Origin: an uncultured Rickettsiales bacterium
GTDB taxonomy: Bacteria; Pseudomonadota; Alphaproteobacteria; Rickettsiales; CAZNNM01
NCBI GenBank assembly: GCA_964574415.1
Contig: CAZNNM010000009.1
Location: 4,975-68,974, forward strand
Direction of reading: 5' to 3'
DNA: 64,000 nt
Every line of letters starts with the position of its first letter. The stretch's first letter is position 1. The translations under genes were made by a program, and so were the position numbers. The notes under the pieces were generated by a model, which ran no database searches, was not told the origin of the DNA, and worked only from the letters and a program-made list of their open reading frames with translations. Shown in pieces: positions 1,725 to 54,566 of this stretch.

Positions 1725-2459
1725 TTAATCGCGCCCTAAACGTCTCAAGTTCTCACGATATTTAGCATTACTCACTAACCAATTCTGATATGCCTTAGAA
1801 GTAACTCGATCAACAGGCTTAAACTGAAGGCTTGCCCATATCGGCGCAAGCACTTCAGAGGAATTGGCATAATCTTTATATTCAGAACGCATTGTCTCTT
1901 TATAACTAATCTCAATCGGCGGGAAATCCTTAGGCTGATTGGGTTGATAACAAATAAAATCCTGCGAAAAACTTTTGGGCGCAGGAGGCCTAGGAGTATC
2001 TAAAATCTCTACTAATACACAACGCATACCCGCTCGTGTTATAGTACTAATAAAAATCTCACTGCTTTTGCGTAACTTCACGGTTCTTTTCGCTTCGTCA
2101 TTCTCTCGGCGAAGACGGCGCTCAAAACTTTCTGCGTTACTAAAACCACTAAACGGTGAAATCACAACACTAAGATTTCTCAGAGTGTTGCCGTCCTTAG
2201 AGGCAGTGAGATGAAAGCCTACATCATCAGGGTCTTTATATGTTACTACTTCCCAACTATTTCTATCAGGTGGCAATACTGAGAATCTCTCTCCCTCATA
2301 ACGCTTTCCAGGTACAACTTTCTCTCTTTGATATCCAGTGGAATGGAAACTCATTCCGCAAGCTGAAAGTAAAAGCACAATAGTAGATAAGAAAGTAATA
2401 TAACGCAAAACGAAATTCCTATCGATTAGGATGGCTAATAGGTGATGGAGTAGCTGCAC
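1725..2459 (-). CDS. putative lipoprotein; candidate immunity protein for the upstream C-terminal hydrolase domain
   Basis: 244-aa ORF lying directly after the exoprotein gene, with a 41-nt overlap. A lipobox-like LLLSAC sits near the N-terminus. A TTG at 2408 preceded by AGGA is an alternative start that removes the overlap. No family recognised. Confidence 0.6.
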   Translation of the reverse strand: MQLLHHLLAILIDRNFVLRYITFLSTIVLLLSACGMSFHSTGYQREKVVPGKRYEGERFSVLPPDRNSWEVVTYKDPDDVGFHLTASKDGNTLRNLSVVISPFSGFSNAESFERRLRRENDEAKRTVKLRKSSEIFISTITRAGMRCVLVEILDTPRPPAPKSFSQDFICYQPNQPKDFPPIEISYKETMRSEYKDYANSSEVLAPIWASLQFKPVDRVTSKAYQNWLVSNAKYRENLRRLGRD

Positions 2460-28732: not shown

Positions 28733-31700
28733 TTAACGACTGTTACCGCTGTGCCTTTCTTCTGGCTGTTGCGATTGGCTTTGCAAGTAGCGGGAAGCAA
28801 ATGCACCGGCTTCTTGAACATAAGGCCTCACCAGCGATACACTGGCTTGCGCAGCAAGTACAGTAAACGATGCAGTATTCAGCATTAACTGCTCAAACGC
28901 CGTGTTAACAATCGTTTTTACCATACCGCCAATAGTCGGATTATAGGAAGATACTACCTCTGAACCCAACTGACTCACCTTGCATACCGCCGCCCATGGG
29001 CCGTATAGCGCGGTTTTGGCTACCAGATCAACGGTTTCAACTCCAAGTGTTGTCTTCCATGATGAGCCGAAATGCTCACGGGCAAAGCCGCGTATGAATT
29101 GTTCAGCAATACCAACTGCCGCAGAAGAACAAAATACCTGCGCGTTGCTTTGTATCAGCAAACTTTGCAGATCGGCTGTGGTTTGCGGAGTGAAATCAAT
29201 CGTATCACCGTTTTGCGTATAACCACCATTGCGCAGCAATACCTCCTGCACATCATCCGCTTTCAACTCATAACCGCGCGCTTGCGCTTGCGCAGCAAAG
29301 GCTGTGGCTATAGGTGCAATGATCTCTATAGATTCATCCGCATTAAAGTTGACCACCGTGGCGTGGGATGGAACTACATCGCTCGGCGTCTCAACCACAG
29401 GATTAGGATTAGGATTAGACTTAGGCTCTGCATTCGTATGGGCAGACGATAAGAGATTCGGCATTTTCAGTGTCACCGTATTCAGGGCAACATTACGCAA
29501 CGCATATAGCGCAACACCCAACTCCACATACAATGATTGAGAGATGCCACGCGAAGCACTACTCGTCACTGGAGGAGGCGTCACCTCACCTGATGGCGGC
29601 TGTGCGCTTGGTGTTGGGGGTGGGGTGACGGGTGGGGTCGTTGGTGATACAGGCACTTCAGTCGGCGGCGAAGATGGCTCTTCGCCTGGCGTTGGAGGTG
29701 ATACTGGCTCTTCCAGGGGAGGAGTCGGCGTAGGTGTTGGAGTAGGAACAGGCACTGGTGTTGGTTCTTCCGGGGTTGGAGGCGAAGATGGCTGCGGTAA
29801 TGGATCATCATTCTGCACAATCAATCCCTGTGTTCCCACAAAATCCACCTCGTCTATACCCAAATCCTGAGTCACATCCACTCCACCGGCGAGTATTTCA
29901 AAAACTATATCCTCAAATATCGGGCTACTTCTATTATACCCTATAGTCACTGCTTGCTGTTCTGCAATCTCTATTTGCTCTTGTGGAAAATCATGAATGA
30001 CGACATATCTTCCCGTAAATCTTGGATCACTACAGTTTGGAAGATTGCTATAAGATATAAATAACGACTGATGGGATGGATTCATCACGCACCAATTATC
30101 CGCAAACTCTCCATATAGCAATGCCGCTGGCACCGGCACTGTAAGATCTATTGCCGTGCCATTAAGAAAAGCCAGATCATTTTGCCAGTTGCCATCATTA
30201 GTTCCTAATAGTCCATAAACAGTATTGCTCGCACGATTACGGGAAAGAAATGGATATATATTCAGATGATCACGCACATAACGGGTCTTAAATCCGTCTC
30301 CCTCCTCAGTGACAATAGTATACTGCTCCATTACGCTCGTACTGCGATATATCAACCCCTCGCCCAATGCCTTCATCTCTCCACGTTGCAGTGACAGAGG
30401 ATTCCCGCCGAAACGCACTCGATAAAACGGCACCACCGTACCACTCACACATTCTACCGGAATAGTCGTCGTATCCGTAAAATTAATACGAGACACAAGC
30501 GCTTCTGGGCTGACATTTTCCACCAACATCCCGCCAATAATGCCGGTAGACGATGTGGTGCTAATAAAGGTTCCTTCATCTGTGGGCAACAGTTCAAAAT
30601 GTTCGGATGATGTATCACCATGCAGGATAATACTATCTTGCGCCACATCAAATTGCTGAATGCGGTCAACACCATCGCGCCCGATGTGATATCCAAATGT
30701 ATCAGGCGCAGCGCCGCCAATCAGTGTATCTCCATATGTCGCAAACGGGAACCCATGCACATTCTCAGCCACAATCACCGATGTATGGCATCCCTCAAAA
30801 TGATGTTCATGATTCGTATGTTGATAGGTGCCATACCCCTCCCTGTTAAAAGCCGTGTCGCTATATACAGCATGCATCGGAGACGAATTGAGATAGCCCT
30901 GACAGAACGCTTTTATCATCGTGCCATTAATGCTCGGCGCCCATTGAATAAAAGAACCGGACGTTGTGGGCAATAACTGGAATGTAATAGACACACCATC
31001 GGCAAGGCCACGGTTGAGATTATCTGCATGAGAGCCGCCGGGTATCATAAAATAGCCCAACTCTTCAGCAGGAACACTCAGGCTAATATTAAACGTACTC
31101 CCCAGCGGCACTGTATTCAGATTCGCCCAGATAATTTGCCCTAAAACAGGCGCTGTTCCATTGCTCACATAATACCCAAAGCTTGGCGATCTATCGGCAT
31201 CGCTCTCCAGCAATGCCGCCTCGCCTTCCACAAATATCTGCGCATTGCCCGTATCAGGCCCGCCATAGATAACCGTCGGTGAGACATCAGATCCCCGAAT
31301 CACATCATTCCGTTCCGTGCTACACTCCACCCCACGCGGCGGTAGATAAAACTCAATAGGTGTTTCACCTATACGCGATGCAGCAGCCGTAATAACTGAC
31401 ACACCCATACTGATCATCCGGTGAAAAGTCTGTATCTCAAATCTATCATCAACCCCATGACCCTTCACCGCAACATACGGCCCAGGTGCCTGGAAATCAT
31501 ACTTCAAACGGTCAAATGTAATAATATTAGGGTCGCGCCAGATTTGGGGTTTCGCACCAGGCCGCGCAAGGAGTTTGCTGAAGAGAGAATGCTTTAGGTC
31601 ATCCAGAATGTCTTCAACATCTTGATCAAGGTAAAGGCCTATTTCTTTGCCAATATCATAAACTCTTAAAAATACCTCTTCACCCGCTATACCACCAACT

Positions 31701-31933
31701 ATTCCCGCGCCAATAGTTAACACGCCACCCGCAATAACGCCAGGCAGACCTAGCGCTAATAAGGGCGCTAGCGCTTGTGCGGTCATGGTTGCTGCAAACG
31801 CACCACCTGCAACACCACCCCCAAAACCAACGGCCCATTGTGCCATAATATCCGCAGCACCTTGCACATCACCAGATTGATACGCAGCATTAGCATCCGT
31901 GGCTGCCATCGGCGATGCACGCAAGCACATCAC
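28733..31933 (-). CDS. giant modular protein (Gly-zipper-like head, split VWD-like domain with RTX-like insert, Pro-rich linker, C-terminal module shared with protein E)
   Basis: 1066-aa ORF. Head: WAVGFGGGVAGGAFAATMTAQALAPLLALGLPGVIAGGVLTIGAGIVGGIAG. VWD-like start DPNIITFDRLKYDFQAPGPYV and end YGLLGTNDGNWQNDL. RTX-like GDTLIGGAAPDTFGYHIGRDGVD. Linker PVPVPTPTPTPTPP. The last ~280 aa are about 90% identical by eye to the end of protein E. Confidence 0.75.
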   Translation of the reverse strand: MMCLRASPMAATDANAAYQSGDVQGAADIMAQWAVGFGGGVAGGAFAATMTAQALAPLLALGLPGVIAGGVLTIGAGIVGGIAGEEVFLRVYDIGKEIGLYLDQDVEDILDDLKHSLFSKLLARPGAKPQIWRDPNIITFDRLKYDFQAPGPYVAVKGHGVDDRFEIQTFHRMISMGVSVITAAASRIGETPIEFYLPPRGVECSTERNDVIRGSDVSPTVIYGGPDTGNAQIFVEGEAALLESDADRSPSFGYYVSNGTAPVLGQIIWANLNTVPLGSTFNISLSVPAEELGYFMIPGGSHADNLNRGLADGVSITFQLLPTTSGSFIQWAPSINGTMIKAFCQGYLNSSPMHAVYSDTAFNREGYGTYQHTNHEHHFEGCHTSVIVAENVHGFPFATYGDTLIGGAAPDTFGYHIGRDGVDRIQQFDVAQDSIILHGDTSSEHFELLPTDEGTFISTTSSTGIIGGMLVENVSPEALVSRINFTDTTTIPVECVSGTVVPFYRVRFGGNPLSLQRGEMKALGEGLIYRSTSVMEQYTIVTEEGDGFKTRYVRDHLNIYPFLSRNRASNTVYGLLGTNDGNWQNDLAFLNGTAIDLTVPVPAALLYGEFADNWCVMNPSHQSLFISYSNLPNCSDPRFTGRYVVIHDFPQEQIEIAEQQAVTIGYNRSSPIFEDIVFEILAGGVDVTQDLGIDEVDFVGTQGLIVQNDDPLPQPSSPPTPEEPTPVPVPTPTPTPTPPLEEPVSPPTPGEEPSSPPTEVPVSPTTPPVTPPPTPSAQPPSGEVTPPPVTSSASRGISQSLYVELGVALYALRNVALNTVTLKMPNLLSSAHTNAEPKSNPNPNPVVETPSDVVPSHATVVNFNADESIEIIAPIATAFAAQAQARGYELKADDVQEVLLRNGGYTQNGDTIDFTPQTTADLQSLLIQSNAQVFCSSAAVGIAEQFIRGFAREHFGSSWKTTLGVETVDLVAKTALYGPWAAVCKVSQLGSEVVSSYNPTIGGMVKTIVNTAFEQLMLNTASFTVLAAQASVSLVRPYVQEAGAFASRYLQSQSQQPEERHSGNSR

Positions 31934-31980: not shown

Positions 31981-34900
31981 TCAACGGCTGCTGGCAAGTT
32001 GCTTTTCTTCCTGCTGTTGCGCGTGACCTTGCAAGTAACGGGAAGCAAATGCGCCCACTTCTTGGACATAAGGCCCTATCAACGATACAGTGGCTTGCGC
32101 AGCGAGTACAGGCAGAGATGCAGTATTCAGCATTAGCTGCTCAAACGCCGTATCAACAACCGTTTTCACCATGCCGCCAATCCTCGGATCATAGGCCGAT
32201 ACCACTTCTGAACCCAACTGGCTCACCTTGCATACCGCCGCCCATGGGCCGTATAACGCCGTTTTGGCTACCAGATCAATGGCTTCAACCCCCAGCGCAG
32301 TCTTCCACGATGGGCCGAAATGCTCACGGGCGAAGCCGCGTATAAATTGCTCAGCAAGACCCATCGCCGCAGAAGAACCAAACGCCTGCGCGTTGCTCTT
32401 TATCAGCAAGCTTTGTAGATCGGCTGCGGTCTGCGGGGTAAAATCAACCATATCACCTTTTTGCGTATAGCCACCATGGCGCAGCAATACTTCCTGCACA
32501 TCATCCGCATTCACCTCATAACCGCGTGCATGCGCTTGAGTGGCAAAGGCGGTGGCAATCGGTGCAATGACATCGATAGATTCATCCGCATTAAGGTTAC
32601 GCACCGTGACCGTCGCTTTGGATGATACTACACCGCTCGAACCTGGCGTCTCAACCACAGGCTTAGGTTCGGCATTGGTATTCGCAGGCGCTAAGAGGTT
32701 TTGCACCTTAAGTTTTACTGTACTGAATGACGTTTTACCAAGTGCAAGTGCATATGATACAACAACTGTATCTATCCAACTCATATAGAATGGCTCAGAA
32801 ATACTAGGCGAAGCACTGCTCGTCATCGGCGGAGGCGTCACCTCACCTGATGGCGGCTGCGCGCTTGGTGTTGTGGTCGTGGTGACTGGTGGCGTCGTTG
32901 GTGGCACAGGCACCTGCCCAGGCTGCCCCATAGGCTCTGAACCAGGCATAGGCGAGAAGCCGGGTTCCGGGACAAAACCGGGCTCTGGTGTTGGCTCCCC
33001 GACAGGAGGAGGTGGTAGTGGCGTCAGTAATGGTAACGTCCCCTCCAATACAGATACACTAGCAGCTGGAATCGACTCGACACGATACGGATTATACAAC
33101 ACAGTTGAAAACTCTATATCCGCCAACGATAACATCTGCGCATCACGCTTCTGCCCAGGCGCGAATGCTATATTAATACGTGTGCGTGGCAATGCATTGA
33201 ATTGCTCTAATGTCCGGCCAATATTTTCTACGTAATGATGATAAGTAAAATCTACCAACGATATCTGGGCATAAGGTCTTTCTGCTGTAGGTTGGCTTAA
33301 ATAAACGCCTGGTGGATAGCCTTCTGCAAAATAACTCAGCACCACCTCTATTTTATCACCGGCCGAGAAATCGTTAAAGTTATACACTACATCCGGAGTC
33401 CCCTCTGGATTGTTACTTGCATAGAACATCCTTAACTTATCTGGATATGGCCCGCTTATAAATGTAGCATTCTTCGCCCACCCACATTCCAGTATAGTAG
33501 AAAAAGCTCTATCTGCCATTACCGGAACCTCCAGCTCTGTCCGAACATCTACCGGTTGGTGATATTTAGTAGACGAGATAATCTCTAAGTATGTCACCAC
33601 ACTAGATACAACCTCTGTATTTCTAATATCCATTTGTGTTGCCATAATAAATGCATGCTTCTGCAATGTTTGATGCACGATAGCTGCACGCATCTGTAGA
33701 TTATGCGAATACCAAGAGAGATTTACTGGAAATGCTGAAGATTGCGTATAGGATGGCAGATTACACATTTCTAGATTACGAGAACCATAGGCACAGCCGC
33801 GGATTAACAATGATGTAGCAGCCGCTTTATAATCAGACGTAGATGCACTACCTACCCCCCATTCCACCAGCTTCTTATCACTGAACATCATTCTACCAAA
33901 GGTATGAGTATATCCGGCATCTATAACATCAAACGGAAAAGTAGGAGATACTTTAAGAACATCTTCTGGCCCAAGATATTGAACTTCACCACCAGGTAAT
34001 ATACTTGCAGCCCCACTCACTCCAGTAGCCGTCACAACATTAGACCAATGCACATCCACTACACCATCAGGCTGCGCAACCGCTCCAGTCCTAAATGGAA
34101 AATTAGCAAATGTTGTGGTATGCAGTAGCACTGGCTCAGCCTTAGGCTCACCTGTATTCGCAAAATACCGTATAAACACGCGTACCGTATTACTGCCTAG
34201 CTCAGGCAAAACATCAGCCCAGCTAACCGCAAACCCCTCCTCCTCTCCTTCTAATGCGGCACAACCAAACTCTTTTACAAACGTAGTTGAATATAACGGC
34301 ACCACCTCCTGCAAATGCCCACCTTCAGCTGCCACCACCGTCCCCACCCTAAACGGCGCCACCACAACCTGCATCTGCGCATTCACAATCATGCCCTTAA
34401 GAATATTCCCATCCGTACGATGCACAAACCCAATAAAGCTATTCCCATTACTCAGCTTTATACTCTTTAAAGCCTCATATTCCTCAGACGTTGAGAGTGC
34501 TGAAAAGGAAGTAGTATCAGCCGTCAGAAGACGCGTGCTCCCCTGCACCAGACCACCATTCATATTACGTATCTGATACGATACATGCGGGGTTATCATA
34601 TTCTCAGGCGATGGCACTAAATCCGATAAACGCCTCCCCAATAATGCTATATTTCCATTCCCTAGAGATACTATAGCATCAACTCGCAAATCGGGAATCT
34701 CAACCCGCCGCTTGCTCAAATCTATCCCAAAATCACCATTCTCAAATTCCTCCACACGAACACTATGCGAAGAACTCTGCGCTTGAATAACCAGGTCACT
34801 CCCCTGCATCCCAAGATTAAACGTCCGCCCGTCATGCACCATCGTGCACGAAACCTCGCTCACACACGTAGGCGCATCCGTGCCAAAAAGACGGTCGCCC

Positions 34901-36108
34901 ATAAAAATCTGGTTAGCAGGAGCATTCTCGTCAGCAATAACATCCTCATCGGCAGTCACACTATCAGGCAAAAACTTATACTTATTAACAGCTCTCACAT
35001 TCTCATAACGATCACTACCACCAAAATCAGGGATGTCATAATTCCCTTCCGTAGTGATAACCCTATCTCGTTTATTCGTCGTGCCGAATATCTCAGCATT
35101 AGATAAACCATGCGTCAGGATCGTTACGCCAGTTTGAAGTTCAGGATTGGGAAGATGGTTAAGATTTGCTATAAATGCAGCACGATATGCAGAAAAGTCA
35201 CCGTCATATAGCGTCTGCAAACGTGGAGGAACCAAGTCGCCCGTCAACGGATTTGCAGCCCAACGGGCTTTCATGTATTCTTCCCAGTAGTAGGGGTTTT
35301 CATCGTAATTTTCATAATGACCACGCCCACCAAGTACACCTTGTGGCCATGCATAGGGTTCACTATATACAGCTGGAAAATCCTGACCGGGTTGGAATTG
35401 TTGGAAAATAGGTCCCATACGATGCTGGCCAGTAAAAGAAAAATACCATGCATAATATACACTAGCAGGCTGTGCCGTTGTACCATCAATCGTAGTATAT
35501 GAAGGATAAGCACGATAAACCTTACCAACCTGACGATTGGCGGTATTAATTGCATTGGACGCAGCATTAAATGTTGTAACGTGTCCTTCCGCCCATTCTA
35601 ATGCCCCAGCAGTAAAGCTACCCCCAATCACAAGTTCTTGAATATTAGGACGAGAACCAGGGCTATCGAAACTTACAACAGGAGAACGGTCTCTTGCGCC
35701 ACACAATTCCGCTAGAAAACCACCCAATGAGTGACCTGTATGACTTACATGTTCATAAGGATTTAAACCAGTAATGCGTATATACTCTATAGCAACAGCA
35801 TCAATAAATGGTACTGCACTTGCCCAGAATTGCTCTGTTGCAGATGATAATAACGCTAACCATACATCATCACCTATATCCTTTACTACTTCAAATCCCG
35901 GACTTGTTCCTCTATGAGCAATAATCAGTTGCTTGGTTTCCGAATTAAAGTATGCCGACCCAAAATAGCCATTTCCTTGTAACTCTGGCGCAGCATCTAG
36001 AAGGATGGACCATCCAGTAGGTAGCCTCCCAGGTGGTAATAACAGCGTATCATCTTCATCGCGATAAACTTCAACGCTTAATAAAGCATAATCATAATTC
36101 TTTGCCAT
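31981..36108 (-). CDS. giant modular protein E with N-terminal class-3-lipase-like head
   Basis: 1375-aa ORF. The head contains HTGHSLGGFLAELCG (a GxSxG nucleophile elbow). The core contains ENGDFGIDL and SLGNGNIALLG / LSNGNSFIGF blades. The EPGFVPEPGFSP linker matches A and the C-terminal module matches the 1066-aa protein. GGAG lies 8 nt upstream of the ATG. Confidence 0.8.
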   Translation of the reverse strand: MAKNYDYALLSVEVYRDEDDTLLLPPGRLPTGWSILLDAAPELQGNGYFGSAYFNSETKQLIIAHRGTSPGFEVVKDIGDDVWLALLSSATEQFWASAVPFIDAVAIEYIRITGLNPYEHVSHTGHSLGGFLAELCGARDRSPVVSFDSPGSRPNIQELVIGGSFTAGALEWAEGHVTTFNAASNAINTANRQVGKVYRAYPSYTTIDGTTAQPASVYYAWYFSFTGQHRMGPIFQQFQPGQDFPAVYSEPYAWPQGVLGGRGHYENYDENPYYWEEYMKARWAANPLTGDLVPPRLQTLYDGDFSAYRAAFIANLNHLPNPELQTGVTILTHGLSNAEIFGTTNKRDRVITTEGNYDIPDFGGSDRYENVRAVNKYKFLPDSVTADEDVIADENAPANQIFMGDRLFGTDAPTCVSEVSCTMVHDGRTFNLGMQGSDLVIQAQSSSHSVRVEEFENGDFGIDLSKRRVEIPDLRVDAIVSLGNGNIALLGRRLSDLVPSPENMITPHVSYQIRNMNGGLVQGSTRLLTADTTSFSALSTSEEYEALKSIKLSNGNSFIGFVHRTDGNILKGMIVNAQMQVVVAPFRVGTVVAAEGGHLQEVVPLYSTTFVKEFGCAALEGEEEGFAVSWADVLPELGSNTVRVFIRYFANTGEPKAEPVLLHTTTFANFPFRTGAVAQPDGVVDVHWSNVVTATGVSGAASILPGGEVQYLGPEDVLKVSPTFPFDVIDAGYTHTFGRMMFSDKKLVEWGVGSASTSDYKAAATSLLIRGCAYGSRNLEMCNLPSYTQSSAFPVNLSWYSHNLQMRAAIVHQTLQKHAFIMATQMDIRNTEVVSSVVTYLEIISSTKYHQPVDVRTELEVPVMADRAFSTILECGWAKNATFISGPYPDKLRMFYASNNPEGTPDVVYNFNDFSAGDKIEVVLSYFAEGYPPGVYLSQPTAERPYAQISLVDFTYHHYVENIGRTLEQFNALPRTRINIAFAPGQKRDAQMLSLADIEFSTVLYNPYRVESIPAASVSVLEGTLPLLTPLPPPPVGEPTPEPGFVPEPGFSPMPGSEPMGQPGQVPVPPTTPPVTTTTTPSAQPPSGEVTPPPMTSSASPSISEPFYMSWIDTVVVSYALALGKTSFSTVKLKVQNLLAPANTNAEPKPVVETPGSSGVVSSKATVTVRNLNADESIDVIAPIATAFATQAHARGYEVNADDVQEVLLRHGGYTQKGDMVDFTPQTAADLQSLLIKSNAQAFGSSAAMGLAEQFIRGFAREHFGPSWKTALGVEAIDLVAKTALYGPWAAVCKVSQLGSEVVSAYDPRIGGMVKTVVDTAFEQLMLNTASLPVLAAQATVSLIGPYVQEVGAFASRYLQGHAQQQEEKQLASSR

Positions 36109-36123
36109 TCACTACTCCATTAT

Positions 36124-36555
36124 TTAATGCAAACTACGCTGAGCCGCTAACCACCATATAAAAGTTATTGCTATTAATGCCAGCGGTACAACTATAATTA
36201 TTGCTCCTCTGGTTAAGATATGCATATAGCTCAATTTTGTATTGCCGCTATTCCTCCATAAAAAAACTCCAACTACTAATTCATATAAAAGAAATACGCC
36301 TACCAATATACTTGCAATAACATAATCGACATCCTTACTAAAAGCAGTGTCTGAACCTGCTAATCTATCTGGATTTAAAGATGACAACAGAATATCAAAC
36401 ATATAATTCCATAGAATATTTGTTATATAGAATAGAAAGATACTTCCAACAACTCCCCACCCCCAAAACACAATCCAGAGCCTTACCTCACCTTTCCAGC
36501 ATCGTTTTAAATGATTAACAATAGACATACCCACTCCTATCAACACCCCCATCAC
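36124..36555 (-). CDS. small polytopic membrane protein (immunity-like candidate) upstream of lipase protein E
   Basis: About four hydrophobic segments. The likely true start is ATG 36528 (MSIVNHLKRCW), preceded by GGAG. It is a paralogue of the frameshifted gene at 38029..38410. Confidence 0.6.
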   Translation of the reverse strand: MMGVLIGVGMSIVNHLKRCWKGEVRLWIVFWGWGVVGSIFLFYITNILWNYMFDILLSSLNPDRLAGSDTAFSKDVDYVIASILVGVFLLYELVVGVFLWRNSGNTKLSYMHILTRGAIIIVVPLALIAITFIWWLAAQRSLH

Positions 36556-38014
36556 CCAGCGACACTAACGCATCCACTCGCAAGCCCACAATCTCAACCC
36601 GCCGCTTGCTCAAATCTATCCCAAAATCACCATTCTCAAATTCCTCCACACGAACACTATGCGAAGAACTCTGCGCTTGAATAACCAGGTCACTCCCCTG
36701 CATCCCAAGATTAAACGTCCGCCCGTCATGCACCATCGTGCACGAAACCTCGCTCACACACGTAGGCGCATCCGTGCCAAAAAGACGGTCGCCCATAAAA
36801 ATCTGGTTAGCAGGAGCATTCTCGTCAGCAATAACATCCTCATCGGCAGTCACACTATCAGGCAAAAACTTATACTTATTAACAGCTCTCACATTCTCAT
36901 AACGATCACTACCACCAAAATCAGGGATGTCATAATTCCCTTCCGTAGTGATAACCCTATCTCGTTTATTCGTCGTGCCGAATATCTCAGCATTAGATAA
37001 ACCATGCGTCAGGATCGTTACGCCAGTTTGAAGTTCAGGGCTTGGCAAGCGGTTTAGTTTCTCGGAAATAAAGGCACTACGATACGCGGCAAAATTATTC
37101 CCATAATGCTCTTGAACGCTTATCGAGACACCATTAATATTCGCCCACTCAGGATCAGCGGCCCAACGGGCAGCTATGTATTTTTCCCAGTAGTAAGGGT
37201 TCTGGTCATAATTCTTGTACTGATTATAACCACTCGTATCCACTAACGTTCCAAACGGCCAAACATCAGGCTCGCTATATACTGTTGGCAAATCTTGGCC
37301 AGGCTGGAATTGTTGGAAGATAGGAATCATACGGTGCTGGCCCGTAAAAGAAAAACTATATCCATAATAAATATTACCAGGTTGATCGCTCATGCCGTCA
37401 ATGGTCATATATGGTGAATATACCCTATACATCTTCCCAACATGAGTATTGGCAGTACTAACTGCATTAGGGGCCGCATTAAACGTCACCGTATTTGCAT
37501 CAATCCATGCCATAGCATCTGAAGCAAATGTACCATCAATAATAAGATTTTGGATATTGGGACGCGAACCAGGACTTTCAAAATTCCGAACGGGAACTTT
37601 ATCCATTGCTCCAGATAGCTCCGCCAGAAATGCCCCTAATGAATGTCCCGTGTAACTCAAATGCTCACGTGGCCCTAAACCGGTAACGCGGAAATATTCT
37701 GCTTTTGCGGCATTGATGAAGGGGATGGCATTCTCATGAAATTGTTGGGTTTGCCAATCTAGTAATGCCAACGCTATATCATCGCCAACATCAGCAAAAA
37801 TATTATCTGTTCCAGCATGTGCTATAATAAGCTGCTTTGTAAAATTATTTATATACGCTCTGCCAAAATAGCCATTTGCAGACCATCCTCCATCTTGGGA
37901 ACTGAGCAAAATAGACCAATCACTGGGAAGCCGTCCTTCAGGCAAGAAAACATCATCTTCCGGATTATTGTAACACTCAACACTAAATAATGCATATTCA
38001 TAGTTCTTAACCAT
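36515..38014 (-). CDS. truncated lipase-head paralogue (second class-3-lipase-like head plus constant region, truncated at the first NGN blade)
   Basis: 499-aa ORF. The head contains YTGHSLGAFLAELSG and is about 60% identical by eye to the E head. nt 36590-37039 are identical to E nt 34696-35145. The ORF ends in a short unrelated tail (DGGVDRSGYVYC*) where E has GNGNIALLG. Confidence 0.7.
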   Translation of the reverse strand: MVKNYEYALFSVECYNNPEDDVFLPEGRLPSDWSILLSSQDGGWSANGYFGRAYINNFTKQLIIAHAGTDNIFADVGDDIALALLDWQTQQFHENAIPFINAAKAEYFRVTGLGPREHLSYTGHSLGAFLAELSGAMDKVPVRNFESPGSRPNIQNLIIDGTFASDAMAWIDANTVTFNAAPNAVSTANTHVGKMYRVYSPYMTIDGMSDQPGNIYYGYSFSFTGQHRMIPIFQQFQPGQDLPTVYSEPDVWPFGTLVDTSGYNQYKNYDQNPYYWEKYIAARWAADPEWANINGVSISVQEHYGNNFAAYRSAFISEKLNRLPSPELQTGVTILTHGLSNAEIFGTTNKRDRVITTEGNYDIPDFGGSDRYENVRAVNKYKFLPDSVTADEDVIADENAPANQIFMGDRLFGTDAPTCVSEVSCTMVHDGRTFNLGMQGSDLVIQAQSSSHSVRVEEFENGDFGIDLSKRRVEIVGLRVDALVSLGDGGVDRSGYVYC

Positions 38015-38028
38015 ATTAATTCTCTATC

Positions 38029-38410
38029 TTAGCTATGATTAAAAGTTAAAAACTGTTGCATGAACCATCCTAAAAGCAGCAACAACCCTCCCAAAAAACC
38101 GATTAGAATAACACTTACTCGTGTTAGAGTTTTCAGAAACTGGCTACTTGTATTGGCGCTGTTTTTCCATATTATAAAAAGTGCAAGTAAGCAGTAGCAT
38201 ACAGCTATAGAAAAATATATTGTACCAAACCAAAATTCATTATACCGACCAAATGCCTCATGAATAGACGGATACAGATAGCTCCACAGATAAATCATAG
38301 CTGTTACAAGAGCACTTGATACAGCTACCCCCCCAACCCCAGAACACAATCCAGAGCTTTTCCTCGCCTCTCCAACACCGTTTTATATGATTTACAAATC
38401 CAGACAACAT
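38029..38410 (-). pseudogene. frameshifted paralogue of the 36124..36528 membrane protein (G7 tract)
   Basis: ATG 38410 opens MLSGFVNHIKRCWRGEEKLWIVFWGWG, matching MSIVNHLKRCWKGEVRLWIVFWGWG in the paralogue. The frame is then lost at a run of 7 G on the minus strand (7 C on the plus strand, 38328-38334). The rest of the homologue (the 106-aa ORF 38029..38349) is in the adjacent frame, and G6 would restore a single ORF. Confidence 0.7.
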
Positions 38411-38442
38411 CTTCTCTTCCCATAGTTGTATTTCGCAACCGC

Positions 38443-38471
38443 ACCATACCTAACAGCCCAACCACTGTCAA
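38443..38471 (-). promoter_or_regulatory. sigma70-type promoter, cassette copy 4
   Basis: On the minus strand: TTGACA, a 17-nt spacer, then TATGGT, about 33 nt upstream of ATG 38410. GGAAGAG lies before the ATG. Confidence 0.55.
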
Positions 38472-38595
38472 CTTTACCGATTCACCAATAAGTTATACTT
38501 TCTGGCGGATATCCGCTCGCATGATGCTATAACTCTCTGGTATATAAAAAGAGTAATGGTTGTGTTTTTAGCGCTTTGGCATAAATAGAATATTG

Positions 38596-39096
38596 CTAGG
38601 CAGCTGATGAATACGTTGTATTCCCATTCGCCAAGGAAATCATCGCATCCACCCGTAAATCAGGAATAGCATAACGGCGCTGGCTCAAATCTATCCCAAA
38701 ATCACCGCTCTCATAACCCTTAACCTTGATGCTATGCGTAGAGTCCTGGGCTTGGATGACTAAATCTCCATTCTGAACGGAGACGCTATAGGTTTTTCCC
38801 TTATGGGTCGTGGTGCAGGATATTTCGCTGGCACATTCAAAGCTGCTTGTGCCGAACTGCCCTTCATCAATATCAATACAGTACGATGGCCAGTAAGCGG
38901 CAAGGTGAGATACGATGCAGGAAGGTGAATACCAAAATAGGTACTGACTTATTTTGAAATAATTGCCGTCATTTTTGGACTTGATCGGCGTTGTTGCATG
39001 GCGATAAAATACCCTGTCATCAGCCCAAGGATGACAAGCATTCATAACACCTATGTATTTTTCTAATGTTATCTTGGGACTGTCACATTCTGACAA
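38596..39096 (-). pseudogene. chimeric remnant ORF F (unrelated 5' part with MITE fragment, out-of-frame patch of gene A, E-like segment)
   Basis: nt 38874-38938 are identical to gene A nt 23033-23097 but are read in a different frame. Downstream, FGTSSFECASEISCTTTHKGKTYSVSVQNGDLVIQAQDSTHSIKVKGYESGDFGIDLSQRRYAIPDLRVDAMISLANGN is colinear with E. It ends with the tail TYSSAA*. nt ~38975-39000 match the MITE terminal sequence CTTGATCGGCGTTGTTGCATGG. Confidence 0.65.
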
Positions 39097-39162: not shown

Positions 39163-39190
39163 GGGACGGCGAAACCGTCCCTTTTTGCTT
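39163..39190. terminator. GC-rich hairpin immediately after the 798-aa gene
   Basis: GGGACGG-cgaaa-CCGTCCC followed by TTTTTGCTT on the plus strand. On the minus strand, which is the coding strand of the flanking genes, an A-run precedes the stem and no U-tract follows it. Confidence 0.45.
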
Positions 39191-41585
39191 AGGAGATGAC
39201 ACAGTGGTCATGCTTCCGCTGCTTTTGTACTTTTTCGGTATGCAGTGACTGTGAGGAACTTGCGATACCTCCCATGGCTCCATTTGAAGATGATGCTTGC
39301 AGAGAAGGCTGCGGAGATTCATCAGGTGTCAACACTGAGACAGCAGGCATGGCACGGCTAAGCAGGGCAGATGGCGCATCCCTGCCTAATATTGCCCTCA
39401 GATTTCCCGATGCCCCCAATGCATCACGCGTTGCTTGTGCCAGCCTGCTTGCATCTTGTAGGGTGAGATAGGATGCCAGACTCTCCATAACAGATTGTGC
39501 CGTATGAATAAGAGGCTGCTGTACAGAGCGGGATTGCACATAAAAACTTGTCCAAACAGGGCCTGGCACATTACCCGAAACACCTAAAACAGAGCTATGA
39601 TATTCATAGGCTAGTTCTGTAGGCCTTATCTGTATCTGCTGTATAAAATGCATACATGTTGCAGGATATTTTTCTAATCTCGTAAGGAGATTTATATACG
39701 CCGCAGGATTCTCCTGTAACTGTCGAAGGAAATCAGCATATTTCGCATCATGCTCTTGTAACTGTACCAGGAAATCAGCACATGCTACAGGGCCCTTCTG
39801 TAGCTCGACAAGAAAATCAGCATATGTATCAGGGTAGCGCCCTAATATTGTGAGAAACTGAGTACATACACCATCCAGCGATAAAATATTTTCTTTTATT
39901 CCAGCTATTGTCCAACCTTTTGCTACTAATATGGATAGGCTGAAACATCCTCCCCCCAATATCTTTTCCAATGTTTCAAAGTCATCTTTATAACACTCTA
40001 TGATAAACTGAGGAGCAACACCTATATCTGCTAACAGCATCGCTCCATGCATCATCTTTCCGAGCAATACAGGTTGTGTTTTAGATAGCGATATAATGTA
40101 CTCATTAGGAACATTGAGTCTTTGCAAATCCTCAATAGCCCCAATCCCAGCAGCATATAAGATTTTACTCCAACCTGTTGGTTCTGTAATGCATCCATTC
40201 ACAAGCTGCGCATTAATGATGCCAAGTTCCTTGAGTACCCGAAGTCCTTCCAACCCATCTCCAGTAATCATTTGGCACAGGAGATGCGGGGTATGCATAA
40301 AAAGCTCGTGTATTTCCGGCATTCGGAATACCATAATTTGTAAGGATCGCAGCCCTCGCAACCCATCTTTACTTATCATCTGACACAGGAGATGCGGGGT
40401 ATGCATAAAAAGCTTTTGTATTCCCTCCATTGGGAATCCTGTATCTATTAAAGCTCCCAGTCCTTTCAACCTATTTTCTACAATTATCTGATAGAGCAGA
40501 TATGGCTCATTCACAACAAGATTTCGTACACCTTCCTTAGAAAGATATCCCTCTCTTAATATACACATTACGTACTGCCCAGCGTTGCTCATTATCTGCG
40601 CCAGAATATCTGGTTTCTCCGTAAAGAGTGTTTGCACCTCTTCTCCCGTAACCCCCATCTCCTGGAATACTTGCGGACACTCTAAGCTAATCGACGCCAG
40701 CATATCGCTTAAAAGAGCAGGGTTAGCTTTAAATAGATTCACAATATTATCATTATGAATACCCAATTGCTGCAATACCAGCACCCCATCCTGATTAACA
40801 TACCTTAATACATTAACAAAAGCGTATGGATTCGTTTCCAATACTTTCAGGATCGACCCTTTCCGCACACCTAAATTCTGCAATAATATGATGGTTTCCA
40901 GCCCCATGGGACTACCTATAGAAACGAATAGTGTTATATCCGTCTGAAACACGCCTGTAATCGTTTTATTATATACCCCTAATGCTCTGAATGCTATAAG
41001 ACCATCTAATAGTTTTTCATATGACAGCCTTGAATTCTCCATAAGCACATGAAAAATATCTAACGGAGAGATGCCAATATCCTGAAACCCCCGCAACTCC
41101 CCTTGTTCTACTTTAGATACCAGCGCCTTTAACAATGAATAGAGATGCCGAGCATCCTGTTGGTACCATTGCTCAATCTGGCCCTTCGTAGCTCCCCAGC
41201 TATGCAACACCCAAAATCCTTCCAGCTGAGAACGCCATCTTTGTTGATTGGCAGAATCACGCACAATCTTCTCCAGTACCTCACTCAGAAATACGGGAGC
41301 CTCGCGAAACAACTCACCTACCTGTTCAATACTCACACCAGCATCACGCAATTGCTTTAATTCACCAGCATACTTAACTATCTTACTAAAGAGTTGGTCA
41401 TACTTAGAAAACAGCGCAATAATATCATCGCGATTAATTCCCGCACCCTCTAATGCTTGAAGTACCCCCTGTCTCCTATACCCATCCATCGCCTCCGGCC
41501 ATTCTCTGACTGGATTCTGTACAGGGGTGACTGGCGCGGTAGCAGAAGATGAGGCAGTAGGCGTGTTTTTTGTTTTTTTAGGCAT
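39189..41585 (-). CDS. mTERF-like repeat protein (eukaryote-like effector candidate)
   Basis: 798-aa ORF made of more than 12 consecutive ~36-aa units of the form LxxLG(I/V)xxxxIxxLFxxxPxLLxxMxxxxxxxxxx, for example LQQLGIHNDNIVNLFKANPALLSDML and LIDTGFPMEGIQKLFMHTPHLLCQMI. Five or six ~12-aa YADFLxxLQxxP units follow. The C-terminus has an F-box-half-like LASYLTLQDASRLAQAT. Confidence 0.6.
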   Translation of the reverse strand: MPKKTKNTPTASSSATAPVTPVQNPVREWPEAMDGYRRQGVLQALEGAGINRDDIIALFSKYDQLFSKIVKYAGELKQLRDAGVSIEQVGELFREAPVFLSEVLEKIVRDSANQQRWRSQLEGFWVLHSWGATKGQIEQWYQQDARHLYSLLKALVSKVEQGELRGFQDIGISPLDIFHVLMENSRLSYEKLLDGLIAFRALGVYNKTITGVFQTDITLFVSIGSPMGLETIILLQNLGVRKGSILKVLETNPYAFVNVLRYVNQDGVLVLQQLGIHNDNIVNLFKANPALLSDMLASISLECPQVFQEMGVTGEEVQTLFTEKPDILAQIMSNAGQYVMCILREGYLSKEGVRNLVVNEPYLLYQIIVENRLKGLGALIDTGFPMEGIQKLFMHTPHLLCQMISKDGLRGLRSLQIMVFRMPEIHELFMHTPHLLCQMITGDGLEGLRVLKELGIINAQLVNGCITEPTGWSKILYAAGIGAIEDLQRLNVPNEYIISLSKTQPVLLGKMMHGAMLLADIGVAPQFIIECYKDDFETLEKILGGGCFSLSILVAKGWTIAGIKENILSLDGVCTQFLTILGRYPDTYADFLVELQKGPVACADFLVQLQEHDAKYADFLRQLQENPAAYINLLTRLEKYPATCMHFIQQIQIRPTELAYEYHSSVLGVSGNVPGPVWTSFYVQSRSVQQPLIHTAQSVMESLASYLTLQDASRLAQATRDALGASGNLRAILGRDAPSALLSRAMPAVSVLTPDESPQPSLQASSSNGAMGGIASSSQSLHTEKVQKQRKHDHCVIS

Positions 41586-43048: not shown

Positions 43049-43783
43049 CTAAAACATTACACGTAAACCCACGCTCGCAACGGCACTATCACGGTTTTCA
43101 CCAGACTGTTTTGCCATACGCGCGGTTTCACCAAAAGTGCTTTCGTAGCTTAAATCAATATAAGGAGCGAATTTCCGAGTAAATTCATAACGGGTTTGAA
43201 TACCGAACCCACCATTGGTGATACCCGCTCCGATCTCCTGCTCAGGCACATCCTGAGCAGAGAGATTGATCTCTAGATACGGCTGGGTGATAAGCTTCTG
43301 GGTAAGAAGAAAATCATTTTCCTGCCGGAGCCTAGCAGTTACATCGCCTTTATCACTGATAAAAAGATGGGCTTCGGTTTCAAAGAAATACGGCGCCAGC
43401 CCTTCTACGCCCGCCACCATATAGGTAGTGGATTCTGGCTGGTCATCGAAGCGTATGCCTATTTGTGCATCCCAAAATGCAGAGACATTACGGCTATACA
43501 TCGCCCAGTATTCCGCTTGTTCTGCCACCTCACCTTCCAGCTTTTCACCTTCGGATTTGAGCCATAATTTATTCTCATCCGTTCCAATCCACCCATCGAA
43601 ATCCCAAGAGTAGAGCGCACCATCACGGCTAGCGCCTATATCAGTTTCAAGCTTCATAGCATGGAACACCTCCCCGCCATGTTCTTTTTTATGCGCTTCA
43701 TCTGCGAAGGCTGCGAACGGGGCTAGGCATGCTATAGATATAGCAATACTATATAATTTAGTGCGCATGCTGAGGCCTTTCAT
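43049..43783 (-). CDS. copB: copper resistance protein B (outer-membrane CopB/PcoB family)
   Basis: Signal peptide MRTKLYSIAISIACLAPFAAFA, so the start is probably ATG 43768. CopB-type segments FDGWIGTDENKLWLKSEGE and WDAQIGIRFD are present, and the protein ends in a terminal F. Confidence 0.85.
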   Translation of the reverse strand: MKGLSMRTKLYSIAISIACLAPFAAFADEAHKKEHGGEVFHAMKLETDIGASRDGALYSWDFDGWIGTDENKLWLKSEGEKLEGEVAEQAEYWAMYSRNVSAFWDAQIGIRFDDQPESTTYMVAGVEGLAPYFFETEAHLFISDKGDVTARLRQENDFLLTQKLITQPYLEINLSAQDVPEQEIGAGITNGGFGIQTRYEFTRKFAPYIDLSYESTFGETARMAKQSGENRDSAVASVGLRVMF

Positions 43784-45386
43784 TCTCTGGTGCGTTTGGC
43801 ATATCTTTTGTATCCAATTTTGCTACCACAACTTTATTCATCATTCCTGCCATCATGTGATAGAGCAAATGGCAATGGAATGCCCATTCGCCCACCTCAT
43901 CGGCGGTAAGAAGCACAGAATAACTTTGGCCTGGCGGCACAATCACCGTATGTTTATTCGGAAGTTTCTCGGCTGGCTGGCCATTTTCCAGCTGCACGAA
44001 CATGCCATGGAGATGCATAGGATGTGCCATCATCGTATCATTCACAAATGTCAAACGCACACGCTCACCATAGCGCAACTGCATCGGGCCGGCTTCGGAG
44101 TATTTTTTGCCGTTGATCGTCCATATATAACGCTCCATATTGCCGCCTAAACGCACTTCCAGCGTACGTTCTGGCGCACGTGTATCTTTTTGGATGCCGA
44201 GATAGCGTAAATCGGCATAAGAGAGCGCTTTATCACCTTGCGGTGTACCAGCCTTGGCCCAACCGCTTTGCATGTCCTCGCGCATGGCTTGCATTTCTTC
44301 TGCACTCATGGCGCTATGATCCATGCCAGACATATCATGTTCCATACCCATATCCGTCATTGTAAGCAAGGCACGTGGACGCGGTGCTGGCACCTCGCCT
44401 TTCATATTTTCGCGCGGTGCAAGGGTGCTTAAGGCAAAGCCTGTGCGGTCGATGGGTTCGGCTACGATCGTATAGGCTTTATCTTCTTTAGGCGTGACAA
44501 CCACATCATAGGTTTCTGCTACACCAAAGCGGAATTCATCCACGCCAACCGGCTCAACATTCTGCCCATCGGCAGATACAACTTGCATTTTTAATCCGGG
44601 AATCCGCACATCATAAAATGACATCGCCGAAGCATTAATAAACCGCAAGCGCACACGCTCACCAGGCTTAAATAACGCTGTCCAGTTTTGATCAGGGGTT
44701 TTGCCGTTGGTGAGGAACGTATAGCCAGTAACATCCGATAAATCAGTAGGCAACATCCGCATCTCACCCCACATTTTGGCATTCTGCCAGGCTTTGCCGA
44801 AACCTTGATCTTTCACATCGGCAAAGAAATCTCCCACTGTACGGCGGGCATATTGATAATATTCAGCGGACATTTTAAGGTTCTTCATGATGGTGCTGGA
44901 TTCTTCCTCATGGAAATCGGAGAGTACAACAACATAATCCTTATCCGCTTTGATAGGATCCACATCTTTTGGTGTAATCACCATCGCACCATAAAGCCCA
45001 TCCTGCTCCTGCCCCATACTATGGGCATGATACCAATAAGTGCCGGCTTGGCGCAGGGTGAAACGATAGGGAAATGTCTTGCCAGGTTTTATCCCTGAAA
45101 AACCATTAAACCCTGGCACACCATCCATCTCACCCGGCAATAACAATCCATGCCAGTGGAGCGAAGTATCTTCCCTTAAATGATTTGTCACATTAAGCGT
45201 GACCTCTTCACCTTCCTTAAAACGGAGTGTTGGGCCTGGAATACTGCCGTTTATCGTCAATTTCTCGACAGGTTTGCCAGTAATAGTGACTTTCTCACGA
45301 GCAATATCCAACGCATATACACCTGCCCATGCGGGTGTAGCGAATAGGAGCGATATCGCGATGACTGTATTACGCATATATGTCAT
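43758..45386 (-). CDS. copA: multicopper oxidase CopA/PcoA
   Basis: Cu-site motifs HWHGLLLP, YWYHAHS, HPMHLHGMF and HCHLLYHMMAGMM, plus a Met-rich insert (MGMEHDMSGMDHSAMSAEEMQAM). Confidence 0.9.
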   Translation of the reverse strand: MTYMRNTVIAISLLFATPAWAGVYALDIAREKVTITGKPVEKLTINGSIPGPTLRFKEGEEVTLNVTNHLREDTSLHWHGLLLPGEMDGVPGFNGFSGIKPGKTFPYRFTLRQAGTYWYHAHSMGQEQDGLYGAMVITPKDVDPIKADKDYVVVLSDFHEEESSTIMKNLKMSAEYYQYARRTVGDFFADVKDQGFGKAWQNAKMWGEMRMLPTDLSDVTGYTFLTNGKTPDQNWTALFKPGERVRLRFINASAMSFYDVRIPGLKMQVVSADGQNVEPVGVDEFRFGVAETYDVVVTPKEDKAYTIVAEPIDRTGFALSTLAPRENMKGEVPAPRPRALLTMTDMGMEHDMSGMDHSAMSAEEMQAMREDMQSGWAKAGTPQGDKALSYADLRYLGIQKDTRAPERTLEVRLGGNMERYIWTINGKKYSEAGPMQLRYGERVRLTFVNDTMMAHPMHLHGMFVQLENGQPAEKLPNKHTVIVPPGQSYSVLLTADEVGEWAFHCHLLYHMMAGMMNKVVVAKLDTKDMPNAPENERPQHAH

Positions 45387-53342: not shown

Positions 53343-54566
53343 CTACCACGCCCTAAAAATCAGCGACGTATTCACCCCACCAAAAGCAAAATTATTCGAC
53401 ATAACATAACGCACCTTCGCCTGGAGCGGTTCGCCCTGTATATACGCAAGCTTTCCACATTCTGGATCAATTTCAGTTAAGTTCAGATTAGGTGCGAACC
53501 AGCCCTCTTCCATCATCTTTAAACTCATCCAGGCCTCTAGGCTACCTGCCGCGCCGAGTGTATGGCCCATATAGCTCTTTAAGGAAGAGAAAGGCACAGT
53601 ATCGCCGAACACCTCTGCCGTTGCCCGTGTTTCGGCAACATCACCGGAATCCGTTGCAGTGCCATGGCCATTGATATAGCCAATATCTTGTGCGGTGAGA
53701 TTGGCATCTGCCAATGCCAGCTCCATGGCTTTACGCATTGTATGCTGGGTTGGCTTGGTGACATGATTACCATCAGAGTTCGTACCAAACCCGACTACTT
53801 CTGCATAGATACGCGCCCCACGCGCCTGGGCGTGTTCTAATTCTTCGAGAATCAATGTTCCCCCGCCTTCACCAATCACCAATCCACCCCGTTTAGCATC
53901 AAAAGGCTTCGGGCAGAGTTCTGGATGAGCATTATTGGTTTCGGTGGCATAGAGAATATCAAAAACAGCCGCTTCTGTTGCACATAACTCCTCCGCACCA
54001 CCTGCGACCATCACCGTCTGCTTACCATGCTTAATCGCTTCATAAGCATACCCAATAGAAATACTGCCGGACGTACACGCCGTTGAGCTAGGGATAATGC
54101 GGCCTGTGACACCAAAAAATACACCTATATTGGTTGAGGTTGTATGCGGCATCATTTTGATATAGGTATTAGCGGTAATATTATCCAGCACCTTATGCGT
54201 CAGCATTAGGCTGAAATTGGCAAGCGCTTCTGGCGTGCCTGTGGAAGATCCATAGGCTATACCGGTTTGGCCATTGGTGATAATATCATGGCCGAGCAAG
54301 CCTGCATCGATAAGCGCCAGCTCTGTTGTATAGGTCGCATAGAGCGACACCCGCCCCATGCTACGCATGGTTTTGCGGTTATAATGTTCAGGCAGGTTTA
54401 AAGGCTTAATCGGAGCGCCTAAGCGGGTGCGTAGATCATCATAACAATCCCACGCATCCATATATACAACACCGTTTTTACCAGCAAGCAAATGCTCCTT
54501 CACCTCCGCCCAATGATTTCCAATAGGCGAAACACCTGCCATTCCGGTAACAACAACACGTTTCAT
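53343..54566 (-). CDS. beta-ketoacyl-ACP synthase (FabF/FabB-like KS of an aryl-polyene-type cluster)
   Basis: The active-site Cys context PSSTACTSGS, the His motifs NGHGTATDSGD and MGHTLGAAG, and a C-terminal FAFGGVNTSLIF are present. Confidence 0.85.
   Translation of the reverse strand: MKRVVVTGMAGVSPIGNHWAEVKEHLLAGKNGVVYMDAWDCYDDLRTRLGAPIKPLNLPEHYNRKTMRSMGRVSLYATYTTELALIDAGLLGHDIITNGQTGIAYGSSTGTPEALANFSLMLTHKVLDNITANTYIKMMPHTTSTNIGVFFGVTGRIIPSSTACTSGSISIGYAYEAIKHGKQTVMVAGGAEELCATEAAVFDILYATETNNAHPELCPKPFDAKRGGLVIGEGGGTLILEELEHAQARGARIYAEVVGFGTNSDGNHVTKPTQHTMRKAMELALADANLTAQDIGYINGHGTATDSGDVAETRATAEVFGDTVPFSSLKSYMGHTLGAAGSLEAWMSLKMMEEGWFAPNLNLTEIDPECGKLAYIQGEPLQAKVRYVMSNNFAFGGVNTSLIFRAW

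Follow-up and report, generated by a model that had tools for sequence, protein, structure and literature searches.

A 64,000-nucleotide (nt) stretch of DNA from an uncultured Rickettsiales bacterium (GenBank assembly GCA_964574415.1, contig CAZNNM010000009.1, positions 4,975 to 68,974 of the forward strand; hereafter the window) carries two neighbouring lipase-like genes in tandem, a full-length gene of 1375 amino acids (aa), here called E, and a shorter paralogue of 499 aa upstream of it, T499. The two have diverged widely in their N-terminal heads and share, behind the head, a block of 450 nt that is identical base for base. We consider it very probable, judging from the pattern of divergence across the pair, that this identity is a recent gene-conversion tract between tandem paralogues of a recombination-prone family. 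Recent conversion is the best reading because the block has no synonymous differences while its flanks are saturated with them, and because the synonymous sites of the same block do vary between species. The genes of the pair and of the surrounding cluster all lie on the minus strand, and the features on which the argument turns are the following.

31981..36108, minus strand: gene E, 1375 aa, with a lipase head (aa 1-321), the block (aa 322-471), an NGN-repeat body, a Pro/Thr-rich linker and a helical C-terminal domain of ~320 aa
36515..38014, minus strand: T499, 499 aa, with a second lipase head, the block and 24 further codons, the first 15 of which are a diverged tail homologous to E
34696..35145, minus strand: block copy 1, inside E (aa 322-471), encoding the linker module that joins the lipase head to the NGN body
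36590..37039, minus strand: block copy 2, inside T499 (aa 326-475)
34650..34695, minus strand: diverged tail of the duplicated unit (partner 36544-36589), ~70% identical, with a proportion of synonymous differences (pS) of 0.69, ending at the GNGN/GDGG motif that is the duplication junction

The identical block and its diverged flanks

Direct comparison within the window showed that positions 34696-35145 and 36590-37039 agree at 450/450 nt with an offset of 1894, just as a preliminary description of this DNA had stated. The block is the longest identical run at that offset, identity falls sharply on either side of it, and it is read in frame within both genes. The heads in front of it are 58.5% identical in aa, close to the earlier estimate of about 60%, and 63% identical in nt; at the latter level, the probability of 450 consecutive matches at a given position is about 1e-91. 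Behind the block, homology does not stop with the perfect identity. It had been proposed that the upstream copy breaks away exactly where E continues into its NGN repeats, and the break does lie at this motif (GNGN/GDGG), beyond which similarity is at background level; it does not lie at the edge of the block, since homology runs on for another 46 nt at ~70%. Alignment of the whole duplicated unit gives a gradient, from ~45% nt identity in the small membrane-protein gene that precedes each head, through 55-65% in the head, to 100% in the block, with a small island of 85% at the 5' end of the membrane-protein genes.

The synonymous sites make the contrast sharper. From Nei-Gojobori counts, the heads of E and T499 differ at a pS of 0.74 and a proportion of nonsynonymous differences (pN) of 0.27, so that synonymous sites are saturated and the pairwise ratio of nonsynonymous to synonymous substitution rates (dN/dS) is ~0.1. 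The 15 codons of the tail between the block and the breakpoint have a pS of 0.69. Diverged yet homologous DNA therefore flanks the tract on both sides, the head upstream and the tail downstream, while the block itself has a pS of 0 over ~100 synonymous sites within this genome. When the same block is compared with a related contig from the Logan collection (L080), pS is 0.57 and pN 0.10; this divergence between species rules out selection at the sequence level as the agent keeping the block identical. As far as the sequence goes, the locus displays every testable hallmark of a conversion tract between paralogues, namely an overlong identity, homogenised synonymous sites and homologous diverged flanks, and the proposal of recent conversion in the preliminary description is well supported by these figures.

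The following history would account for the pattern. An old partial tandem duplication would have created the short upstream gene by copying a unit made up of promoter, small membrane-protein gene, head and block, starting upstream of the membrane-protein gene on the left and stopping on the right within E, where the body has its first NGN motif. Both paralogues would then have diverged to synonymous saturation, with purifying selection acting on the heads, until homologous recombination recently copied the linker module from one paralogue onto the other. The tract would have been limited upstream by the indel-rich junction between head and linker, and its other edge would have fallen 46 nt short of the end of homology. 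Repeated action of the same process across a cluster of 22 kb would also have left the further patches and several truncated fragments described below. It is worth pointing out that the 3'-truncated copy stands upstream of the full gene because a partial tandem duplication with its right end inside E always gives that order; the geometry is thus explicable by the duplication, without any function in swapping heads.

The genes of the pair and the mosaic cluster around it

The heads of both proteins carry a GXSXG elbow (GHSLGG in E, GHSLGA in T499). Their best-scoring named family is NCBIfam Rlip_lipase (NF052630), at 54.7 and 49.6 bits where the cutoff is 440 (E-value 7.6e-15 for gene E), and Pfam Lipase_3 gives 11 bits on the head against a cutoff of 22. 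In an AlphaFold2 (AF2) model of T499 built with 69 homologues, aa 1-200 of the head mostly have a predicted local distance difference test score (pLDDT) above 90, and the block is poorly modelled. A Foldseek search with the head model retrieved class-3 lipases, a feruloyl esterase and a type VI secretion system lipase effector, all at probability 1.0. By this model, the head is a class-3/Rlip-like alpha/beta hydrolase with predicted lipase activity, a distant relative of RLip and not its equivalog. RLip is a secreted lipase of Rickettsia (PMC12507273). The two have in common the GXSXG motif and membership in a family enriched in intracellular bacteria (Legionellales, Rickettsiales, Amoebophilus); they differ in that RLip is a single-domain protein of ~360 aa that has no block, body or tandem array. 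A profile scan of genome contigs found homologues of the head at ~30% identity in Legionellales, Rickettsiales, Amoebophilus and many Betaproteobacteria, fused to ankyrin/NACHT domains, RTX repeats or XVIPCD export domains. Inspection of E and T499 by eye, with no predictor run, revealed no obvious N-terminal signal peptide.

The remainder of E belongs to an orphan family. An exhaustive search with aa 472-1375 against 1.84e9 representatives returned only four matches: g1066 and g1395 from the same cluster, a relative on Logan contigs (P0071) and a weak one (P0103). A common helical C-terminal domain stands behind a Pro/Thr-rich linker in E, g1066 and g1395, and weakly in the external P0103, with a Gln-rich tail at its end in E and g1066. 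This domain was tried as an XVIPCD (PF20410) and rejected, with no Pfam match at E<=10 in any of the three proteins and an hhalign probability of 0.06%; the XVIPCD-bearing head homologues P0092, P0094 and P0098 score 1e-31 to 1e-33 in the same test. An AF2 model of the C-terminal domain of E, from an alignment of three sequences, has a pLDDT of 39 and is unusable for assigning a fold.

On the minus strand, the gene order from 5' to 3' is a 798-aa mTERF-like gene, a 166-aa remnant (U3), the frameshifted M2, T499, M143 and E. The small genes and the element in front of them are as follows.

36124..36528, minus strand: M143, gene for a small membrane protein with three transmembrane segments, between T499 and E
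38029..38431, minus strand: M2/M106, which precedes T499 and is a paralogue of M143, with its frame broken at seven consecutive G (38328-38334)
38441..38506, minus strand: conserved intergenic element upstream of M2, with TTGACA-17 nt-TATGGT at 38471-38443 (promoter scan 10/12, alignment and blastn)

The genes are tightly packed. T499 has its own ATG 14 nt past the stop of M2, and its intact open reading frame (ORF) terminates a few codons past GDGG, at the position of the NGN motif; M143 begins at an ATG inside the end of T499, an overlap of 14 nt, and its stop lies 15 nt before the start of E. Reading six G instead of seven in the M2 run restores a protein of 126 aa with three transmembrane segments; the run could mark a pseudogene or a tract subject to phase variation, or it could be a sequencing error in a homopolymer. 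M143 and the repaired M2 have three hydrophobic segments each and are only ~30% identical outside a conserved N-terminal motif. Copies of the intergenic element (~130 nt) follow U3 and the cluster fragments g192, g154 and g437, with a partial copy after T499; further positions are 27803-27869, 25120-25214 and 27201-27357. To judge from its sequence and its placement, the element probably supplies the promoter and the 5' end for every duplicated unit. Two of its copies have a common start, 'VLYMAT', and the annotated N-terminus of the ORF at 26627..27268 is a translation of the element.

The promoter element, M2, T499, M143 and E appear to form one operon whose genes would be transcribed together. 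Because it has its own start codon and a place in the same apparent operon, T499 would not be silent. Nor does it evolve faster than its partner: relative to the consensus of the family, T499 has 16 unique losses and E has 10 (p = 0.33). One change in T499, R67A, falls in the near-invariant HRGT motif. M143 was also considered as a conserved partner of the heads and ruled out, its homologues being absent beside every other member of the head family, where a small envelope-protein gene is conserved in position only. Searches of the window for RNA genes, with Rfam and for tRNAs, were negative. The mTERF-like gene at the head of the order (39189-41585) encodes a 798-aa protein with internal repeats that matches the eukaryotic-type mTERF family (Pfam E 7e-17); such a match is unusual in bacteria and characteristic of effectors from bacteria that live with protists.

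The pair belongs to a mosaic cluster of 22 kb (~20-42 kb), and this wider cluster, with the other conversion patches around the pair, is the context that the preliminary description missed. Its genes are modular, on a plan of variable N-terminal head, block, NGN body and shared C-terminal domain, and the members besides the pair are listed here.

38596..39096, minus strand: U3, a scrambled third remnant with the C-terminal part of a lipase-type block (~55% aa identity to E), ending 'SLANGN|TTYSSAA*'
28733..31933, minus strand: g1066, with a different N-terminal region (VWD match) and the C-terminal domain of E (71% aa, 79% nt over ~930 nt)
27957..28713, minus strand: headless fragment (g192 region), the block (78% nt identity to the block start) and the first blade, ending 'KNGN|TVYSSAA*'
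25299..26612, minus strand: g437, a short ORF with a transmembrane/RTX-type head and the block, ending right after 'RFANGN'
20077..24264, minus strand: g1395, the full-length paralogue of g437, which lies upstream of it, with the lipoprotein-like g291 between them

Several of these show exchange of their own. Positions 23023-23087 in g1395 ('GIHLPASYLTLPLTGHRTVL') and 38874-38938 upstream of U3 are identical over 65 nt, in different frames; on this sequence match, we regard the identity as a second recent recombination patch and U3 as a mosaic of two paralogue types. E and g1066 share a C-terminal patch of 933 nt at 79% (28752-29656 against 32000-32913) behind unrelated N-terminal parts. The fragment g154 matches g437 at 94% (aa 7-60 against aa 376-429), with 162 nt at 90%. 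The g437/g1395 pair itself is 67% identical in nt and has no high-identity stretch comparable to the block.

The breakpoints recur. Every truncated ORF of the cluster ends just past an NGN or SGN motif, g154 and the g192 region past the second of these, and is then followed by the shared promoter-like intergenic element, as expected of duplicated units. Two junction sequences occur twice each, 'T(T/V)YSSAA*' in U3 and g192 and '(I/A)FDLR..Q.Q*' in g437 and g154. At the other end, the 5' breakpoint of the g192 fragment lies at most ~25 nt from the 5' edge of the identical block. These alignments indicate that the block is a discrete module and that breakpoints recur at its two edges. A neutral account of the breakpoints is available: indels between head and linker stop the extension of heteroduplex, and the short repeats at the start of the body favour illegitimate or unequal exchange.

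Some genes elsewhere in the window are recorded here for completeness. One run (53343-63831) encodes two beta-ketoacyl-acyl carrier protein synthases, a flavin-dependent halogenase/reductase-like protein, an HpnN-like RND exporter and a lysophospholipid acyltransferase, and is reminiscent of an aryl-polyene-type cluster for lipid biosynthesis. The gene at 43758-45386 encodes a multicopper oxidase of the CopA type.

Related loci and comparison with known systems

A scan of genome contigs with the head alignment found 79 loci, none of them above 35% identity, with no sister genome and not the source genome itself among them, and two metagenome scans, one with E and one with the alignment of the block, found neither the array nor a recombinant. 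The only close relative of the body of E is P0071, on Logan contigs L080 (3475-5570) and L081 from SRR21902431 and SRR21902432. This copy starts inside the block, at E aa 357, has unrelated genes upstream and is split into two ORFs; it is probably a headless, decaying copy in a related organism and uninformative about the array. Its tail was also examined as a possible trace of past exchange and set aside as uninformative, with 28/36 nt matching T499 and 25/36 matching E.

More distant loci have a comparable layout. The closest head is found in a Legionellales metagenome-assembled genome (MAG; L001, JAHFSI010000056.1), which has two full-length lipase paralogues in tandem at 2904-5559 and 7826-10473. 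Segments of their heads are of three different ages, with numbers of synonymous substitutions per site (dS) of 0.78, 0.09 and 0.78; dS along the pair also goes from 0.78 through 0.09 to 0.01 in successive segments. Near-identity resumes at the same junction between head and linker ('NPTQQTGITI' there, 'NPELQTGVTI' in the window), and a perfect tract of 1602 nt begins just downstream and runs to the stop codon. In a Sulfuricella MAG (L031, CAZGOY010000013.1, 7129-11400), a 452-aa lipase precedes a lipase-RTX protein that is at least 1457 aa long; their heads are ~50% identical in nt, ~360 nt at 93-100% follow (266 nt of them perfect), and the short ORF breaks off at the start of the RTX repeats. 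Two other loci (L067 and L071) have the same design of diverged heads and near-identical linker blocks. A small lipoprotein gene is tightly coupled ahead of every lipase gene in L031, L067 and L038; these lipoproteins are homologous among the three loci and have no match to known families. The upstream genes in the Legionellales locus encode polytopic membrane proteins. Among adjacent pairs found by the head-based search, to which headless downstream copies are invisible, about 10 have the short gene upstream and the long one downstream, and 0 have the reverse order. We considered this polarity as evidence of selection and rejected it, as this order follows of necessity from a partial tandem duplication in which the head is kept.

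Segmental conversion between surface-protein paralogues is known from the babA/babB chimeras of Helicobacter pylori and the opa genes of Neisseria. The present locus resembles such concerted evolution in having a tract of identity within diverged paralogues, homogenised synonymous sites, edges at module borders and the possibility of chimeras. It differs in that one partner is a tandem copy without its 3' part and lies in the apparent operon of the other, and in that the body belongs to an orphan family.

The preliminary description had drawn an analogy with orphan-toxin displacement in contact-dependent inhibition (CDI) and Rhs loci. What survives of it is the homology handle with an in-frame product, in mirror image. 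In both cases a truncated paralogue stands beside a full-length gene with a few hundred base pairs (bp) of near-identity, 450 bp at 100% here and 522 bp at 95% in the recombinational fusion of a Salmonella Rhs orphan (PMC3967940), and in both recombination would fuse a reserve domain to the delivery part while deleting the resident domain and the adjacent small gene. The rest is reversed or absent. The variable enzymatic domain is N-terminal here, while the CDI/Rhs toxin is C-terminal, after a conserved motif; T499 stands upstream, with its 3' part missing and an ATG of its own, whereas a CDI/Rhs orphan lies downstream, is 5'-truncated and lacks initiation signals; and a small gene precedes each head (M2, which is frameshifted, M143, g213 and g291), whereas the immunity gene follows the toxin in CDI/Rhs. 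Pfam searches of E and T499 gave no TPS/FHA, YD or PAAR domains, and no VENN-type motifs were found in them. The locus thus lacks the defining features of CDI/Rhs orphans, in domain order, position, polarity of truncation and delivery domains, and shares only the homology handle.

A genuine relative of that system is encoded elsewhere in the window. The gene at 2419-11808 (minus strand) encodes a 3129-aa CdiA/FHA-like protein with a TPS secretion domain and haemagglutinin repeats. Positions 1-1708 are an 89% copy of 3540-5247 within this gene, lie past a 244-aa ORF (1725..2459) and run off the window. By sequence and position, the copy looks like a conventional downstream orphan module of the CDI type, in the canonical arrangement, in this same genome.

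The effectors of the X-type IV secretion system (X-T4SS) offer another parallel in layout, with the immunity gene upstream of the effector gene (X-Tfe/X-Tfi; PMC6759196). They too have an N-terminal toxin domain, in some cases a lipase homologous to this head (P0092, P0094, P0098), before a conserved C-terminal domain common to different heads, with a small envelope-protein gene immediately upstream in what is here the same apparent operon (gaps of 14-15 nt) and a Gln-rich C-terminal tail. The differences are that the C-terminal domain of E has no detectable XVIPCD, that E is far larger and has an NGN-repeat body, and that M143, a polytopic membrane protein, resembles none of the known X-Tfis. 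The small upstream genes have no homology to any known immunity family, and no VirB/VirD4 genes were found within the 64-kb window.

Head exchange, other explanations and what the tract means

As the preliminary description predicted, removing 1894 bp between the repeats is a clean operation on paper. Deletion of 35146..37039 in silico leaves one open frame of 1379 codons, encoding 1379 aa, in which the T499 head and the block lead into the body of E; the head of E is lost together with M143 (36124..36528), and M2 stays with the T499 head. The repeat is a competent substrate, as good as the 522 bp at 95% of the Salmonella Rhs fusion (PMC3967940), for a deletion of the RecA type that would mount the T499 head on the E body. 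The further step of treating this deletion as an operating or selected mechanism of head swapping is not supported, and the scans of genome contigs and metagenomes turned up neither a sister genome nor a recombinant.

The most serious alternative gives the exchange a function. It holds that the upstream modules of small envelope-protein gene, lipase head and linker block are reserve cassettes and that the block is kept as a recombination handle, which we think unlikely. The companion proposal, that the determinant of effector export or anchoring is C-terminal and that deletion or conversion mounts another head with its partner gene on a constant body, is equally doubtful. So is the broadest form of the idea, in which the cluster and the arrays of Sulfuricella, other Betaproteobacteria and Legionellales would be mirror-image orphan toxin cassettes for effectors with C-terminal export (type I secretion of RTX proteins, T4SS-type or other); we offer it tentatively. 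Several observations fit. The in-frame chimera keeps M2 with the T499 head and drops M143 with the E head, T499 is intact with a head under purifying selection despite saturated dS, and the NGN boundary recurs in a second pair of short and long genes, g437/g1395, which ends there too. The two edges of the block are where breakpoints cluster; diverged heads with near-identical linker blocks recur in L001, L031, L067 and L071, and the small lipoprotein or membrane-protein gene ahead of every lipase gene there matches the upstream-immunity layout of X-T4SS effectors (PMC6759196). Head homologues with XVIPCD export domains exist, and the repeat is comparable in length to that of the Salmonella Rhs orphan fusion (PMC3967940).

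Other observations speak against it. No recombinant was seen in the genome-contig or metagenome scans, and a swap made by deletion could not be reversed. The T499 head has M2 as its presumed partner, yet M2 is frameshifted; T499, with its own ATG in the same apparent transcript, would not be silent, and it carries R67A in the HRGT motif. The polarity of short upstream and long downstream is the outcome of any partial tandem duplication, M143 has no homologue next to other members of the family, the g437/g1395 pair, at 67% nt identity, has no high-identity handle, and dN/dS bears no sign of diversifying selection. Conversion is the mechanism whether the tract is plain or its exchange is selected, and our high confidence in the first statement and our doubt about the second grade different claims.

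A second alternative, which we judge very unlikely, is that the identity is the leftover of a recent duplication, T499 being a young copy of the 5' part of E whose head was later replaced from a third paralogue or by transfer. Head shuffling is evident in the cluster, since U3 combines g1395-type and lipase-type pieces and E, g1395 and g1066 share C-termini behind unrelated N-termini. However, the T499 unit is old on both sides of the block, because the 46-nt tail up to the old junction is as diverged as the head (pS 0.69) and because the junction and the intergenic element are common to the older U3, g192 and g437 fragments; two events would also be needed where conversion needs one. An artefact of assembly or polishing, in which copies that are merely similar had one consensus written twice or a repeat was mis-joined, is highly improbable: the source contig (87.8 kb) does come from a draft assembly and its proteins are singletons, a repeat resolved through one graph node would be reported as 100% identical by construction, and the 7-G frameshift nearby could be a homopolymer error, but both copies have unique, in-frame, homologous flanks with the edges of identity inside continuous reading frames, collapse is unable to turn 60-70% identity into 100% over 450 nt, and independent assemblies of other organisms show like mosaics.

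Recent conversion between the paralogues has its own points of weakness, which should be set beside the evidence for it. The exact identity is read from a draft assembly, in which graph collapse or polishing could inflate the figure, so that the true value is perhaps slightly below 100%. The state before conversion was seen in no sister genome by the scans of genome contigs and metagenomes. Near-identical blocks behind the head recur in independent lineages, and the homology could be selected rather than a neutral by-product.

The block alone is a textbook conversion tract and would hardly surprise a specialist. What gives it interest is the context, with heads that are N-terminal, partial upstream copies kept under purifying selection together with small envelope-protein genes of their own, and only the linker behind the head in common with the full-length gene; unrelated lineages have arrays of a comparable layout. 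If exchange at the linker is not selected, the locus is a clean natural example of conversion tracts confined to module borders in decaying tandem duplications. If it is selected, the diversification of polymorphic effectors by orphan cassettes would not be limited to the C-terminal toxins of CDI, Rhs and MafB, and would include, as a mirror image, effectors whose export signals are C-terminal.

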